A stretch of 64,000 nucleotides of DNA from Candidatus Poribacteria bacterium (GTDB lineage Bacteria > Poribacteria > WGA-4E > PCPOR2b): NCBI GenBank assembly GCA_965208675.1, contig OZ242351.1:1408001-1472000 (forward strand), in the 5' to 3' direction. Under the pieces are notes generated by a model, which saw only the letters and a program-made list of their open reading frames with translations, did no database searches and was not told the DNA's origin. Below are positions 20,902-58,986 of the stretch, one piece after another. The position numbers were made by a program, and so were the translations under genes. Every line of letters starts with the position of its first letter. Positions within the stretch are counted from its first letter, which is position 1.

Positions 20902-21681
20902 CTAACACTTTATGAAAACTAACAGATCAAACGCTTCGACCACCGGCGATGGCTCTATTTCATTTTCCGCAGCCGCTTTCATCTCAAGCAACCCCGCTTG
21001 AAACTCCTCATCGGAAATGAACTCAAACGTTGACATTGATTTCGACTTGATACGTTGGTAGTACGCTTTAAGACTGCCGTTCATTTGCTGCTCGATGCGT
21101 ACCAGATCAACCTTCTCAAAACCGTTGGCGGCGAAAGCCGCTTCAACCCAGTCAACACTCGGCAAATTGCGGTTATCTACTGCCCAAGCGCTAGGGAAGA
21201 ATTCGTGGTATTTAGCTCTAGCCATCCTACCCGTGAACCCATTTCGGATAAACACGAGACCGTCCGGTTTTAGCGCACGATGTAACTCCCCGCAGGCTAG
21301 AGCAATGTCATCAAAGTGGTGGATTGCCATTGACAGGAAAGCAAAATCGCACTGCTGTTCGTCTACGGGTATGCGTTCAGCCTTTCCCTTAATATACGAA
21401 ACCCTTTGGTCTGTATTACTTTCCTCCGCGATTGCCCGCATCTTGTCCGACGGTTCGACTCCAATGACGCATGCATGAAAGTACTTCGCCAAATGGGGTG
21501 CAAATCGGCCGGTTCCAGATCCAAGATCGAGAATGGTACCACCTTTCGGTTTAGGAAGATACTTCGCGATTGCCTCCATCCAGCGGCGGATTGTTTCATC
21601 TGAAAGCACACGCCCCCGCTGATAGTTCTTGTAAAGCTCCCGATCATAATCTACTTTTTCCATGCAGTTACCAAGGTTCAC
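20902..21681 (-). CDS. Class I SAM-dependent methyltransferase
   Basis: ILDLGSGTG, GVEPS..M, IHHF and LKPDG. Start overlaps the leuB stop (alternative ATG at 21663). Confidence 0.88.
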   Translation of the reverse strand: MNLGNCMEKVDYDRELYKNYQRGRVLSDETIRRWMEAIAKYLPKPKGGTILDLGSGTGRFAPHLAKYFHACVIGVEPSDKMRAIAEESNTDQRVSYIKGKAERIPVDEQQCDFAFLSMAIHHFDDIALACGELHRALKPDGLVFIRNGFTGRMARAKYHEFFPSAWAVDNRNLPSVDWVEAAFAANGFEKVDLVRIEQQMNGSLKAYYQRIKSKSMSTFEFISDEEFQAGLLEMKAAAENEIEPSPVVEAFDLLVFIKC

Positions 21682-22763
21682 GAGTCCTGTTGAATTTCCG
21701 CAATAATTGCATCTGTCATTTCGACAGTGCCAACCGTCTGCAACCCCGGCTGTTGGATATCGACAGTGCGGAATCCCTTGTCAATGGCACGGTCAACGGC
21801 GTTTTCAACCTCCACTGCCTCATTGTTGAGATTGAAAGTGTGACGAAGCAGCAGCGCCGCGCTTAGGATGGCGGCGATTGGATTGGCGATGCCATTTCCT
21901 GCGATGTCCGGCGCCGTGCCGTGGATTGGTTCATATAATCCCTGAATTGAATGGCCGTAGCTTGCCGAAGGACACATTCCCAGGGAACCCACCAAGGCGC
22001 CGGCTTCATCAGAGAGAATATCTCCGAAGATATTGCCAGTTACTATAACGTCAAATTGGCTCGGATTCTGAATGATGAAATATGCGCACGCATCAATTAG
22101 AATATGCTCCATTTCCACGTCAGGAAAATCCAGACTGACTTTAGCTGCGACCTCACGCCACAGCCTTGAACTTTCAAGCATGTTCTCTTTCGTCACGGAT
22201 GTCAGCTTTTTAGATCGCTTTCTCGCCAGCTCAAAACTTGCACGAACCACACGATCGACTTCTCTGGTCGTGTAAGACATGGTATTGAACCCGCGTTCGC
22301 CGTCAGCTTCCTTCACGAATCCTCTGGGTTCGCCGTAGTAGATGCCGCCAGCCAACTCGCGGATGACGACAAAATCTAGACCTTCACCGATAAGGTCTGC
22401 CTTAACAGGCAAAACGGGAGCAAGCGCTTTCCTACCCCGAATCGGGCGGAGGTTCACAAAGAGATCCAACTCCTTGCGAATGGCTGCAACCGCTCGTTCC
22501 GGGCGTTCTTCACTGGGCACATCATCCCAACTAGGCCCACCCGCGGCGCCAAACAAAATTGCATCGGACAACTTGCAAAGATCTATCGTTTCGGGCGGCA
22601 GAGCCGTCCCCACCTGATCAATAGCACAGCCGCCGATTAGGGCGTGTTCGTATTCAAAGCGATGTCCATATTTTTCTTGAATTGCGTTTAACACTCGAAC
22701 TGCTTCGGTGGTTACCTCTTGTCCGATTCCGTCTCCGGGCAACACACTAATTTTTGCGTCCAT
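21678..22763 (-). CDS. leuB: 3-isopropylmalate dehydrogenase family (long bacterial type)
   Basis: [47 protein letters not shown]. Confidence 0.85.
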
Positions 22764-32844: not shown

Positions 32845-33279
32845 ATGGAAAATGGACGATTGCGGGGGGAGACGGTGCTGGCGTACACCTATTTTGAGAT
32901 GTATCGTGATGCGGGGGATGAGCGCTCATTGGAGGCGCTGAGCGGCCAAGAGGTAACCGGGAAAAAGAGATCGGTTTCGATGATTAAGAAGTGGTCGGCG
33001 CAAAATGATTGGGGCGAGCGCGTTGCGGCATTTGATGCGGAGGCGGCGCGACGGGCAGCAGACGCATTATTAAGGCGCCGGGCATCTGAAATCGAAGTGT
33101 TTATTGAAACGGATATGAAAATTGCGTCGCGGGTTCAGGCGTTGTGCCTCAATCAACTTCAAGTTCTAGAAACCAAAACGGATTTCGGGGAACTACGGCA
33201 ACTAGTATTGACATACAAAGAGGCGCGGCTATGGATGATGGAGCTCACAGGCGCGCTGGAGGAGGACGTACAGACATGA
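32845..33279 (+). CDS. Phage-like HTH protein, putative terminase small subunit-like
   Basis: RBS AGGAGG. GET..AY..F..YRD.G.ERSL....KKWS....W.ER..AFD followed by a coiled-coil segment, a pattern recalled from phage genes lying upstream of TerL. Confidence 0.55.
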   Translation: MENGRLRGETVLAYTYFEMYRDAGDERSLEALSGQEVTGKKRSVSMIKKWSAQNDWGERVAAFDAEAARRAADALLRRRASEIEVFIETDMKIASRVQALCLNQLQVLETKTDFGELRQLVLTYKEARLWMMELTGALEEDVQT

Positions 33280-34298
33280 GAAAGCGAATGAAATTTCACG
33301 AAGTGCGCTACCCCAAAATAGGGGTATCTAAGAGTGGCAATTCAGAGGAACAATCCCTTGCGATGCCAGCGTCTGCACAAGCGGCATCAGAACCTACACA
33401 TGGCGAAATCTATATTCCGAAGGAGACACCGGAGGAGATTGAAAGGCGCGAAAGGCGGGAAAATGAACTAATCAGGATTGCACGGATGCATGGCAGCAAC
33501 ATTCCGGGTCGCGAAGATGTTATAGAAGTTAAAAACGAAAGAACGCACTATGACGGAAGTCGGACGGGCTGCAATATTGAGGATAGTTTAATCATGTTGA
33601 CGGATATCAAGACGGGCTTTTTCAGGGCGTGCGTCGAAAAGAATGGCGGAGGTTGGTACGGCTATCCTAATCCACAGCATCTGGAAAGATATGGACTGAG
33701 TCCGTACGAATATAATAAGAGGAAGTTCAAGGAAGAACACATTCCGGTGGTTAAAGCACGGGAAAGCGAAAACCTTGTCGTCGGACTGATATATCGCAAA
33801 GCGTATCACCGTGCAACAGCGGTCAGTCCGGGTTTCGGAAAATCGGCTGAGATTTTGGTTCAGGAGTGTTGGTTTAAGTGTTATCTTCCATGGACATGCC
33901 TAGAGAGGGACATTTCCCGTTCGGTTGAAGTTGCCAACAACATACTGCAAGAATTGGAGCCGGAGATTACAGAACTGGCTAAGATAGTTGAGGCTAAGAT
34001 TAAAGCCGAACGAAGACTCTGCAAGGCGGCAAGTGAGTATGGCAACGATGCTCCTTTTGGACCTGATGGTGTTCCAGAATGGGTTGACCTTCCAATGCCT
34101 CAGACTCGTGACGAGTTAAACCGGTTGGGAGCGCTTTACAATGAAGATCGGGCGGCGGATCGCCGCGTCAAGGAGAAAGAGGATGCGCATGATCAGGGAA
34201 AGATAGGCCCGAAAGGGTCGTATAGCTTACCTGACGTGTGGGATAGAGAGACTACCTTGGAAGACTTACAGAAGCGGGTAGCAACAGGAAGCCCGTAG
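33276..34298 (+). CDS. Hypothetical protein (340 aa), no recognisable family
   Basis: ATGA overlap with the upstream stop and a GGAGGAGG RBS support a start at 33276 rather than 33144. Confidence 0.75.
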   Translation: MRKRMKFHEVRYPKIGVSKSGNSEEQSLAMPASAQAASEPTHGEIYIPKETPEEIERRERRENELIRIARMHGSNIPGREDVIEVKNERTHYDGSRTGCNIEDSLIMLTDIKTGFFRACVEKNGGGWYGYPNPQHLERYGLSPYEYNKRKFKEEHIPVVKARESENLVVGLIYRKAYHRATAVSPGFGKSAEILVQECWFKCYLPWTCLERDISRSVEVANNILQELEPEITELAKIVEAKIKAERRLCKAASEYGNDAPFGPDGVPEWVDLPMPQTRDELNRLGALYNEDRAADRRVKEKEDAHDQGKIGPKGSYSLPDVWDRETTLEDLQKRVATGSP

Positions 34299-40258: not shown

Positions 40259-41413
40259 ATGAAGACAGTATTGATTTCGGACAGAGTTAGCGGCGATTCC
40301 CCTGACTCATCCGACCCATCTGCACCGCACCAGCCGCCCGAATATCCATCGGCCGCCCCAACTTCAGCCGTACGTACACCTCACAATACAGGATTGAATC
40401 AGGCATTAACTTTCGATCGATTTGTGGTAGGTGAAAGCAACCAAAAGGCTTACGAAGCTGCGCTCGCTTTGACCGACCAAACCGCCCAGGTAGACAAGTT
40501 AATTGTCCACGGCGGCGTTGGACTTGGCAAAACCCATTTGCTGCACGCCATCGGGAACCACTTTAGACAAAAAAATCTGAATCATACCATGTACTGCCCA
40601 TCCGCTGAAAAATACGTGGGCGAATGGATTCAGTCGATAGCAAGTCCGCAGAAATCAAATACGTTACGACAGCGGTACCACACCATTGATTTGTTATTGA
40701 TTGACGACATTCACTTTTTATCCAAGCACTCGAAAATTCAGGCTGAGTTTTTTCATTTACTCAAGCACTTGAGCCAGCAAAACCAGCGAATTGTCTGTAC
40801 GTGCGATCGACTGCCCCGGTTTCTCAAAGACCACTTAGCGTCTTCAAATGTCCTCAATAACGGCTTAATCGTTGAAATTTCTCCGCCTGAATTCGACTTA
40901 CGGGTTTCGATACTAGAGCGAAAGCTGCGGGAACGGAATTGGGGACCTGTTCCGTCAAGGGTGCTAGATTATTTAGCCAAGCATCTAACACAACACGTGC
41001 GCCAGCTCGAAGGCGCATTGAATCGCCTCATGGCGGAAGCTGGTTTGGGATCGAAATTGGATCTTGAGATTGCACGCCGCGTCTTGGAGAAGCGGTCAAA
41101 CTTGAGTGTTTCGGGCGCAATCACGCTTGAAACGATTCAAGAGGCAGTGGCTCGATACTTCAATCTTACGTTATCGGATTTATGTTCTCGAAAGCGTGCT
41201 CGACGATTCGTGCTTCCACGTCAAGTCGGGATGTACCTTGCCCGCGAGCTAACCGAGCTTTCCCATTCCCAAATCAGCCTAGGTTTTGGCCAAAGCCATC
41301 ATACTACCGTGATCCGGAGTTGCCAACGTATCAATTCACTCCTCAATGGAGATTTAGTTCTCAGCCAATCTATTGAATCGTTGAAATCAGAACTGACGCA
41401 ACCCCAAAATTGA
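40259..41413 (+). CDS. Atypical DnaA-like protein (AAA+ domain III plus domain IV, no domain I)
   Basis: TFDRFVVG.SN, GGVGLGKTHLLHAIGN, LLLIDD, VRQLEGAL, PRQ.GMYLARELT, HTTV. Not adjacent to dnaN. Confidence 0.88.
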   Translation: MKTVLISDRVSGDSPDSSDPSAPHQPPEYPSAAPTSAVRTPHNTGLNQALTFDRFVVGESNQKAYEAALALTDQTAQVDKLIVHGGVGLGKTHLLHAIGNHFRQKNLNHTMYCPSAEKYVGEWIQSIASPQKSNTLRQRYHTIDLLLIDDIHFLSKHSKIQAEFFHLLKHLSQQNQRIVCTCDRLPRFLKDHLASSNVLNNGLIVEISPPEFDLRVSILERKLRERNWGPVPSRVLDYLAKHLTQHVRQLEGALNRLMAEAGLGSKLDLEIARRVLEKRSNLSVSGAITLETIQEAVARYFNLTLSDLCSRKRARRFVLPRQVGMYLARELTELSHSQISLGFGQSHHTTVIRSCQRINSLLNGDLVLSQSIESLKSELTQPQN

Positions 41414-54268: not shown

Positions 54269-55327
54269 ATGTATAAAATTGGCTTAATTCCCGGCGACGG
54301 AATTGGTCCCGAAATTACGCGAGAAGCCATGAAGGTCGTCGGGGCAGCAGCCGAAAAAACTAACTTTCAGTACGAAACCGTTGAATACGACTTTGGCGGC
54401 GACCGTTATCTTGAGACGGGCGAAATCCTGCCGGACTCTGCGCTAAATGAGTTTCGACAGATGGACGCAATTTTTTTAGGAGCGATTGGACACCCGGATG
54501 TTCAGCCGGGGATATTGGAGAAAGGAATCTTATTAAGAACCCGTTTTGAGTTGGATTTGTACATCAACCTACGTCCCGTAAAGCTGTACCCAGGGGTGTG
54601 GACACCCATTAAGGACAAAAGGCCGGAAGATATCGATTTCGTCATCGTTCGTGAGAACACGGAGGGATTATACGTTGGAGGGGGCGGCTTCTTGAAACAG
54701 GGAACGGCAGATGAAGTGGCGATTCAAGAGCTCATTGCCACACGCAAAGGAACGGAACGCTGTATCCGCTACGCATTTGAGTTGGCAAGGAAAAGGAATA
54801 AATCGAAGAAGTTGACGTCATGCGATAAAGCAAATGTACTTACCTATGCGCACGATCTCTGGCGCCGCGTATTTGAGGAAGTTTCCGTTGAATATCCCGA
54901 CATTGAAACAGAATTCGCGTTCGTTGATGCGACAACGATGTGGATGGTGAAGAACCCCGAATGGTTCGATGTCATTGTTACATGCAACATGTTTGGAGAC
55001 ATTATTACAGACCTTGGCGCGATGATTCAAGGCGGAATGGGCGTCGCCGCATCCGGGAATCTCCACCCCGGGAGCATGGCCATGTTTGAACCCATCCACG
55101 GGTCCGCGCCGCGCTACACCAACAAGAACCAAATCAACCCCATCGCAGCGATTTTTGCGGCGGGTATGATGCTCGAATATTTAGGGGAAACCGAAGCGGC
55201 TGGATTAGTCGATCGAGCGGCGAGCGACCTTCTTGGGAGCAATAAGCTCCGCGATCTCGCCGCCGGAAAAATGGGATATACAACCTCCCAAGTCGGCGAC
55301 ATGATTGCCGATTCCGTGTCGGCATGA
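54269..55327 (+). CDS. leuB: 3-isopropylmalate dehydrogenase family (short type)
   Basis: [58 protein letters not shown]. Confidence 0.85.
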
Positions 55328-56611: not shown

Positions 56612-57073
56612 TTACATTGCGTCGAAGAAGTCGATTAAATCCTTGCCGTGCACAGCCGCGTTTACCTGCGTGTCGAGTTTGACAATGGTTCCAGCTTTAT
56701 CAATTACAACGGTCATTCGGCTGCTCATGCCGTCCGGTTGGTCAGTCGCACCGAATAGCAAACTGAGCGTGCGGTCCGTGTCTACAAGAAGCGGAAAGCC
56801 CAAGCCGTAGCGTTGCGCAAACCTTCTGTGAATCTCGGCGTCCTGCACGCTAACACCGAAAACCTGTACATCGCGTGCTGAAAATTGGCTCGACTCATCC
56901 CGGAGTGAGCACACCTCAGCCGTTCACCCACTGGTGAAGTCTTTCGGATAAAACGCCAGCACGACATTTTTACTCCCAACGTAATCGCGCAGGCGATGAA
57001 CAACGCCGTCCGCATCTTCCATCTCAATGTCTGGCGCATCCATACCAACTTCCAACGATTTAACGTCTGTCAT
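56612..57073 (-). CDS. bcp: Selenocysteine-containing peroxiredoxin (BCP/PrxQ family), 153 aa, U50
   Basis: ATG 57073 with AGGAG RBS. MTDVKSLEVGMDAPDI...VVLAFYPKDFTSG-TGA(56926-56924)-TAEVCSLRD...GVSVQ...FPLLVD...RMTVVID. The TGA occupies the peroxidatic PxxxTxxC position. Confidence 0.9.
56887..56921 (-). promoter_or_regulatory. Candidate bacterial SECIS element
   Basis: Directly 3' of the TGA: GGCT/AGCC lower stem, GCTCA/TGAGT upper stem, and a G-containing apical loop (CTCCGGGA) about 20 nt from the UGA. Confidence 0.6.
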
Positions 57074-57423
57074 CTAATTCTCCTGTGTTTTTGCGGGTTA
57101 ATTTGAGCCGGCATTATATCAAACCGCACCGCGCCCGTCAAGACCGATTCAAAACGCACAACCGTAATACGCTGTTACTCATGGAGGAGCATCCGTAGAT
57201 TCTCCGGTTGTGCGCGCTACACTGCGAAACCGGATTGTTGCGTTGGGATTGAAGCCGAAATTGAGTAGACACAATCCACGAAAAAGTGTAGAATAATCGG
57301 CACGGTTAGAAGCGAGACTGTCGTGTAAATCCCGCATTGTGCAGCATTCCCGGTTATTAATCCGAAATGCTTCAATTGGACTAATTCGTTTGATGTTTGA
57401 TAAAGAATCAAACAGAGGTTATC

Positions 57424-57693: not shown

Positions 57694-58986
57694 ATGATGG
57701 AACATAAGCATACCTTTACTAACCGTTTTTCACGCATAGGTTATACGCGGCGGCGGTTCCTTGCAGTTTTAGGTAAAGGGGCCGCGCTGGCGGGCGTGGG
57801 CGTTTTTGGCGCCGGTTCGGATGCTGCCGCGCGAGGATTGTTTGGCAGAGGACTCATCCCCAGCGCTTGGGGGGAGACTGCACAGAATTTACTCCCGAAA
57901 CCGGATATGATTGTTCACGCGCAGAATCCATTTAACGGTGAGTTTCCGCCGCACCTGCTTGACGCGGACGTAACGCCCACTTTTCGGCATTTCGTGCGCA
58001 ACAACAGCAGCATACCGAAACGCGCCAAGTGCGGCGATTTAGAAGGTTGGAAATTGACGATTGACGGGGAGGTTCATAGAAAACTCATGCTCTCGATGGA
58101 CGACCTAATGCGTTTCCCAAACGTGACAGCGCATACGGTGGTGGAATGTGCAGGAAATGGCAGGAGTCTATTCACACCGAAAGTTGACGGAACGCAGTGG
58201 ATTCGCGGTGCGGTCGGCTGCAGCGAATGGACCGGGGTGCGTTTACACGATGTCTTGAAAGCCGCGGGCTTAAAAAATACCGCCGTTTACACCGGAAACT
58301 ACGGCGAAGACCTACCGGTCGATTCGGGGGAAGCGTTTTCTCGGGGGATTCCGATTGAGAAGGCAATGGATGAGCACACGTTGATTGCTTTCAAGATGAA
58401 CGGGGAGGATTTGCCGGCGGCACACGGATTTCCTGCGAGACTGATTGTGCCGGGTTGGATTGGCAGTGCGATGCAGAAGTGGTTGAACCGCATATCGATT
58501 AGAGATCGAGTTCATGACACAAAGAAAATGAGCGGGTACTCATACCGCATACCGACACATCCGCCGGTTCCGGGAAGCACACCGCCCGAAAACGTGATGG
58601 AAATTACCACGTCAGGGTTAATCAAGTCGCTCATCACCAGACCTAAATCGAACACCGCCTCGGACACCAATAGACTGGAAATCAGTGCGGGGTCGCCTAT
58701 TCAGGTTGGGGGCCACGCATGGTCGGGAGAGAACAAAGTCGATAAAGTTTATATTTCAATTGATTACGGCATCAAGTGGCAAGAGGCCAGGTTGATCCAA
58801 CCGTCGAATCAGTACGCTTGGTATCATTGGGAGACTGAAACCGCTTTTGAGAAAAGAGGATATTATGAAATATGGGCGCGAGCGTTTGACGATAAAGGCA
58901 ACGCACAACCTTTCAGGCAACCTTGGAACCCCAAAGGATACCTCGGAAATGTTATTCATAGGGTACCTGTTTTTGTCGATTCGTAA
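57694..58986 (+). CDS. Tat-exported sulfite oxidase family molybdoenzyme (SorT/SoxC-like)
   Basis: TRRRFL Tat motif, FVRN, ECAGN.R, WTGV.L, HGFP.RL.VPGW.G...KWL and a C-terminal Ig-like dimerisation domain ending WN.KGY. Confidence 0.92.
   Translation: MMEHKHTFTNRFSRIGYTRRRFLAVLGKGAALAGVGVFGAGSDAAARGLFGRGLIPSAWGETAQNLLPKPDMIVHAQNPFNGEFPPHLLDADVTPTFRHFVRNNSSIPKRAKCGDLEGWKLTIDGEVHRKLMLSMDDLMRFPNVTAHTVVECAGNGRSLFTPKVDGTQWIRGAVGCSEWTGVRLHDVLKAAGLKNTAVYTGNYGEDLPVDSGEAFSRGIPIEKAMDEHTLIAFKMNGEDLPAAHGFPARLIVPGWIGSAMQKWLNRISIRDRVHDTKKMSGYSYRIPTHPPVPGSTPPENVMEITTSGLIKSLITRPKSNTASDTNRLEISAGSPIQVGGHAWSGENKVDKVYISIDYGIKWQEARLIQPSNQYAWYHWETETAFEKRGYYEIWARAFDDKGNAQPFRQPWNPKGYLGNVIHRVPVFVDS

Follow-up and report, generated by a model that had tools for sequence, protein, structure and literature searches.

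The window, by which we mean the whole 64 kb stretch of DNA analysed here, carries on its minus strand a gene (56612–57073) that, on the evidence of its sequence and relatives, very probably encodes a cytoplasmic, full-length peroxiredoxin of the atypical 2-Cys (PrxQ-like) type, in which residue 50 is selenocysteine (Sec). We put the probability of this reading at roughly 0.9 because a TGA is conserved at the peroxidatic position, both halves of the gene are under selection, a SECIS-like hairpin has been frozen behind the TGA, and SelA, SelB and SelD are reported from other members of the Poribacteria.

The gene occupies a single frame of 154 codons from an ATG at 57073 to a TAA at 56612, with one internal stop, the TGA at codon 50 (56924–56926), so that the product is 153 aa when the TGA is counted as a residue. 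The read-through context is FYPKDFTSG*TAEVCS, which places the TGA at the peroxidatic position of PxxxTxxU. A Shine-Dalgarno-like AGGAG (57080–57084) precedes the ATG and corresponds to the region of a putative internal start in the two-domain relatives described below; frame, TGA and AGGAG are all as a preliminary description of this DNA had given them. Further upstream lies a putative sigma-70-like promoter, recognized by sequence match alone (57113–57141, minus strand; TTGACG-17-TATAAT with an extended −10 TG, 11 of 12 consensus matches), and both hexamers are kept in the related loci L001 and L002 and absent in L003 and L004. There is no second or remnant peroxiredoxin copy within the 64 kb window.

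As previously noted, the table-11 ORF list includes solely the 100 aa downstream piece (56612–56914), and TGA is an ordinary stop here, used by 17 of the window's 49 main ORFs. Among these are radC and era, whose ORFs extend to the ends of their own family profiles and, hence, a genome-wide change of code is not indicated. The same observations could be taken to mean that the TGA at codon 50 is a true stop and the gene either a pseudogene or split into 49 aa and 100 aa pieces, the second starting from the GTG at 56914, and gene callers yield exactly these two pieces. We consider this very unlikely, as 78 records share the TGA and both paralogous domains of relatives carry it (among the best 80 of 216 matches), purifying selection is seen on either side of it, and the split would remove the catalytic residue and, in the structure model, cut helix alpha2.

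The assignment to the peroxiredoxins draws on the frame, the Pfam match, the model and the structural matches. Family similarity extends to both sides of the TGA, as had been claimed, with Pfam AhpC-TSA spanning residues 9–131 of the read-through product (E 1e-33). In the codon 50 column, 107 of 120 listed homologues have Cys and the remaining 13 are fragments that start downstream of the column; 89 of the 107 also have the CxxxxC spacing. An alignment of 98 sequences shows no variation at Pro43, the Cys50 column or Arg119, and Arg119 (56717–56719, minus strand), the conserved catalytic arginine of peroxiredoxins, is Arg in 153 of the 154 domains compared below. The superfamily active-site motif PxxxT/SxxC(U) is represented by P43, T47 and codon 50, and the BCP/PrxQ motif P(K/A/R)(D/A)xTxGC (PMC5302317) by PKDFTSG followed by the TGA. 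The UxxxxC arrangement noted at the outset is completed by Cys55 (56909–56911, minus strand), probably the resolving cysteine, which is Cys in all five single-domain genes and all 74 second domains (best 80 of 216 matches plus the window) and shares a helix (residues 48–59) with residue 50 in a structure model made with Cys in place of Sec (pLDDT 95). An alpha2 resolving Cys is reported for about 60 % of BCP/PrxQ members (PMC4749874), and the modelled position of C55 agrees with this. The model has the peroxiredoxin variant of the thioredoxin fold, and its top structural matches are Bcp proteins (TM 0.86–0.90).

The BCP/PrxQ label originally applied is thus borne out by the PKDxTxG motif, the alpha2 Cys and the Bcp fold, but not by the sub-motif G(V/I)SxD, strongly conserved according to PMC5302317, which reads GVSVQD with Q for D in all five single genes. 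The same Q occurs in some Cys homologues, one of them named 'bcp' in its source. The two best NCBIfam models, NF006960 and NF053650, both narrow equivalog models, gave scores of 79.7 and 92.1, below their cut-offs of 140 and 260. Because of the Q and the cut-offs we describe the protein as PrxQ-like rather than as a clean member, and the BCP/PrxQ label is probable. With the Cys enzymes E. coli Bcp and Sulfolobus Bcp1 (3DRN) it shares the fold, PKDxTxG(C/U), the CxxxxC spacing and the catalytic Arg; it differs in the TGA in place of Cys and the Q in place of D, and is 37 % identical to 3DRN.

A scan of GTDB species genomes produced 216 confirmed matches and the best 80, corresponding to 79 loci, were examined. 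They come from Poribacteria (76 loci) or are labelled 'uncultured bacterium' (three), and do not include the source genome; the closest relatives among these 80 are Poribacteria. The nearest locus shares 94 % protein and about 90 % DNA identity and has the same gene order; in OZ242326.1, from the same lineage, the DNA around the gene is about 90 % identical. When the 79 loci and the window were aligned, the peroxidatic codon was TGA in 153 of 154 domains and TGC or TGT in none, with the TGA-bearing domains sharing 37–94 % identity with the window protein; the sole exception is a TCA in a degenerate domain. Loss of both TGA and hairpin in close relatives had been named in the preliminary description as a finding that would count against a selenoprotein, and the relatives (best 80 of 216 matches) retain both. 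With the homologues carrying Cys in 107 of 120 cases, these domains TGA in 153 of 154 and Cys in none, and the hairpin frozen, Sec at the peroxidatic site, as first proposed, is still the best reading. Of 23 short protein hits, 15 end right before codon 50, seven are C-terminal pieces and one is frameshifted, and the breaking of independent assemblies at the same codon excludes sequencing error. Purifying selection acts on both halves of the gene, dN/dS between the window and four relatives being 0.06–0.12 upstream and 0.11–0.19 downstream of the TGA.

Among database proteins, 16 of 17 full-length two-domain hits have W at these positions and none has C, as would be expected if UGA were read as Trp (code 4) or through leaky near-cognate readthrough. 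The W-bearing hits sit on contigs of 0.9–4.2 kb, and their W presumably appears because the gene caller chose table 4. Termination of radC and era by TGA at their family ends also speaks against Trp, neither Trp nor leaky readthrough explains the frozen hairpin, and we know of no way in which Trp could act as a peroxidatic residue. Decoding of this kind is, in our judgement, highly improbable.

The hairpin with a G-containing loop reported to follow the TGA is present. Its upper part (56888–56910, minus strand; identified by folding and the synonymous freeze) consists of 4 bp, one bulged base and 4 bp, and bears a 6 nt loop, CGGGAU (56902–56897), 21 nt past the TGA, with a free energy of −20.2 kcal/mol. 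In the window gene a lower stem prolongs it to about 56874–56922, the register of which is not conserved across the alignment (58.6 % of cells paired). These values lie within all of the constraints listed for bacterial SECIS elements in the Fig. 2 legend of PMC13188914, namely a loop of 3–9 nt having G within its first two nucleotides (G[G|U]), spacing of 16–37 nt, a stem of at least 4 bp (here eight pairs and one bulge) and an energy of at most −7.5 kcal/mol. Shuffling over four window lengths gave z scores of −2.17, −1.64, −1.19 and −0.04, with 7, 8, 22 and 90 of 200 shuffles equal or better, a modest excess only. Hence, the hairpin stands above chance because it is conserved, not by folding energy alone.

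The conservation is at the level of synonymous codons. In the second and single domains (best 80 of 216 matches plus the window), synonymous variation collapses at U+5 to U+12, where 5 of 8 codons are invariant versus none of the other 53 (Mann-Whitney p 5.5e-6, for sequences that are related and so non-independent), and in the first domains the normalised entropy is 0.16 at the hairpin codons versus 0.75. The loop Arg codon is CGG (102) or CGT (51) in 153 of 153 domains, though these make up 41 % of Arg codons in the background, and this restriction equates to the G[G|U] rule of the bacterial SECIS model. For the stem Leu, all 153 domains use CTC (background 23 %). Across the same alignment the upper helix is 92.3 % paired, with one-sided changes in four of the eight pairs and no compensatory two-sided changes, and the consensus fold, at −3.81 kcal/mol, is a weak one.

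Individual domains were assessed with a custom script rather than bSECISearch. A first, bulge-free filter passed 30 of the 153 domains, and a bulge-tolerant filter, written after this result had been seen, passed 5/5 single, 70/74 second and 20/74 first domains (best 80 of 216 matches plus the window), compared to 7–8 % of the controls (TGA stops, 18 of 248; Cys codons, 75 of 914). Of the 40 loci in one clade, a single one has a first-domain hairpin that passes. The hairpin had also been suggested as a guide to further selenoproteins. When 5,769 in-frame TGAs flanked by open frame were scanned, 24 of the 262 candidates in the window passed the filter and on inspection only the peroxiredoxin gene was protein-like; the clusters from the other loci were judged among those listed.

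Genes for Sec insertion were sought in the window and the 79 loci (1,554,382 bases). The E. coli proteins SelA, SelB and SelD, used as tblastn queries, had no match, and the tRNAs detected by ARAGORN were a tRNA-Gln and a tRNA-Glu, both in one of the 79 loci, with none in the window and thus no tRNA-Sec; an Rfam search of the window returned nothing. As this is 1.55 Mb searched of genomes of 4.7–7 Mb, the local absence of sel genes says little. The supplement to PMC5649159, in which the columns were counted by hand, gives SelA/SelB/SelD counts of 2/1/1, 4/1/2 and 2/1/1 for bin70, bin44 and WGA-3G, and the paper notes an enrichment of SelA and SelB among sponge symbionts. GCA_016866825.1, a metagenome-assembled genome of the order DTYX01, is listed in the supplement to PMC13582414 with SelA, SelB, SelD and two tRNA-Sec. 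Hence, SelA, SelB and SelD are reported in all four Poribacteria genomes checked, the source genome not being one of them, and tRNA-Sec in the single one for which tRNAs are typed. No sel terms were found in the supplements of PMC8546597 and none of the terms sought is present in PMC12013277.

The TGA and hairpin would also be explained if the same SECIS-type signal led to recoding of the UGA to cysteine by tRNA-ReC (selC*), in which case the product would be a normal Cys PrxQ. tRNA-ReC, which decodes UGA with a SECIS, was found in about 13–17 % of the genomes of one survey (PMC13582414). In that survey's supplement, the sole Poribacteria genome with typed tRNAs has its two tRNA-Sec and no ReC, and the three further genomes above carry SelD besides SelA and SelB. 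We therefore regard recoding to Cys as unlikely.

If the residue is Sec, then by analogy with the bacterial pathway (PMC9312934) SelB carrying Sec-tRNA would bind the G-containing loop 21 nt downstream and insert Sec at the UGA. The Sec50 selenolate, held by Pro43, Thr47 and Arg119, would reduce H2O2 or organic peroxides. Resolution of the selenenic acid to a Se–S bond would fall to Cys55, which lies on the same helix, and a thioredoxin-type donor would recycle the Se–S form. The proposed cycle follows PrxQ chemistry (PMC4749874, PMC3322552), of which the selenium version is an extrapolation.

Most of the relatives have a different architecture. Among the 79 loci (best 80 of 216 matches), 74 have two peroxiredoxin domains in one frame, 150–151 codons apart, and 73 have both TGAs, as in L005 (9449–10444) and 72 similar loci. 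A hydrophobic, signal-peptide-like leader with its own ATG and Shine-Dalgarno motif, judged by hydropathy rather than SignalP, precedes the first domain in 70 of the 75 loci that have one. Codon −49, counted from the first TGA, is ATG (34) or GTG (41) in all 75, and 73 of these loci have a Shine-Dalgarno-like motif ahead of it. All 40 loci of one clade use GTG at this codon, against mixed codon use at 10 other Val sites and invariance at 2 of 37 four-fold sites. This pattern suggests that the fusion genes have a second, internal start at codon −49. A structure model of the two-domain protein has a pTM of 0.90, and its listed PDB matches span one domain only. The resolving Cys is found in 74/74 second domains versus 34/75 first domains.

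Some loci depart from this pattern (again among the best 80 of 216 matches). Of the 74 second domains, 40, from L038–L079-type loci, carry Gly for the conserved Thr of PxxxTxxU and keep the TGA, Cys and Arg. In L035 (3417–3851) the first domain has decayed, with TCA for TGA, Thr and Arg lost and no leader, while the second keeps its TGA, and three proteins similar to this decayed form are in the protein set. L037 (9883–10492) retains the leader and first domain only and has lost the second domain, the reverse of the loss in the window. Armatimonadota-type proteins (P0144, P0158 and similar) with a leader, a Cys peroxiredoxin domain and a second redoxin domain are about 30–34 % identical to the fusion.

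The window gene and L001–L004 start at the putative internal start of the fusions, and all of them are domain 1-like before the active site and domain 2-like after it. The window gene is thus a one-domain mosaic of the two ends of the fusion, with the affinity switching at 56924–56968 (minus strand) when blocks of residues were compared with 73 fusions (best 80 of 216 matches). Residues −43 to −15 are nearer domain 1 in 73/73, U+1 to U+12 and U+51 to U+96 are nearer domain 2 in 73/73, and U+13 to U+50 in 53/73. Maximum-likelihood trees likewise group the N-terminal part with domain 1 and the C-terminal part with domain 2 (100/100). A deletion between the two repeats, the DNA of which is 76 % identical around the TGAs, is a simple explanation of the mosaic. 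AU tests did not reject a single gene that branched off before the duplication (p 0.16 and 0.41) or one that is sister to all second domains (p 0.44). Origin of the single-domain form by collapse of a fusion is, thus, favoured rather than shown. A broader scheme can be proposed, in which a Poribacteria peroxiredoxin with two Sec, each with its own SECIS, is made in an exported form from the signal-peptide start and a cytoplasmic form from the ATG or GTG 49 codons before the first UGA, and was reduced in the window lineage, via recombination between the active-site repeats, to a cytoplasm-only, one-Sec mosaic. We put this forward tentatively, considering it somewhat more likely to be wrong in some part than right throughout.

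L003 and L004 (OZ240245.1) are two inverted single-domain copies, 91 % identical over about 800 nt, and bound a segment whose orientation is opposite to that in the window (compared with 34900–57100). Neighbouring genes vary by clade and no conserved redox operon was found (12 neighbour ORFs scanned of 668 clusters). A gene for a SorA-like molybdenum sulfite dehydrogenase (57694–58986), divergent from the peroxiredoxin gene, is common to L001 and L002 only (best 80 of 216 matches). The window also includes two leuB-like dehydrogenase genes (21678–22763 and 54269–55327), and read-through from the second of these into a peptidase at an in-frame TGA near 55325 was considered and rejected as the frame is shifted in L001–L003. 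Two overlapping ORFs of 144 and 384 aa (32845–34298) with no Pfam match lie in a stretch missing from the related chromosome, possibly an inserted element. A DnaA-family ORF of 384 aa (40259–41413) matches its profile from position 81 on, without the N-terminal domain.

Bacterial Sec peroxiredoxins (PF00578/COG1225 Bcp, TxxU, one Sec) have been experimentally verified (PMC13188914 Table 1; PMC9312934), so the window gene is of a known kind; 12 cases were recorded in 2006, when the selenoprotein-rich hosts listed were mostly anaerobes (PMC1794560). The window gene resembles them in PxxxTxxU, the single domain and a SECIS 3′ of the UGA, and differs in that the host here belongs to the Poribacteria, never named in the body of the 2026 review PMC13188914, and that its relatives have two domains and two TGAs versus the one Sec of the table. 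NF040737 (PrxU), which we take to be the Eubacterium acidaminophilum Sec peroxiredoxin, also has Sec at the peroxidatic site, and membership was rejected on a score of 54.6 against a cut-off of 270 and a length of 153 aa against a 233-position profile. A precedent for a PrxQ with a signal peptide is PprX of Caulobacter, an exported BCP/PrxQ with a 20 aa signal extension (PMC3322552). It differs in being a Cys enzyme, while the window gene is leaderless and its relatives combine two TGA-bearing domains with a probable second start. The doubled two-Sec form is missing from the whole 119-family table of PMC13188914, where peroxiredoxin has one Sec, has no dedicated NCBIfam model, and was not found in print in a search that lay outside most subscription papers and the supplements of selenoproteome surveys.

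The value of the window gene alone is mainly one of annotation, as databases carry it as 49 aa and 100 aa fragments, and the two-domain relatives are stored either in fragments or with the active-site residue given as Trp. The proposed two-Sec, dual-start fusion of the relatives is the part worth following. If translated as predicted, it would be a natural test of how two UGAs 150 codons apart are served by SECIS elements of unequal quality, and of one selenoenzyme sent to two compartments. For the Poribacteria, the conserved selenoprotein candidate in the closest relatives (best 80 of 216 matches) is a predicted peroxide scavenger, and it adds a concrete product to the enrichment of SelA and SelB reported earlier for sponge symbionts (PMC5649159).
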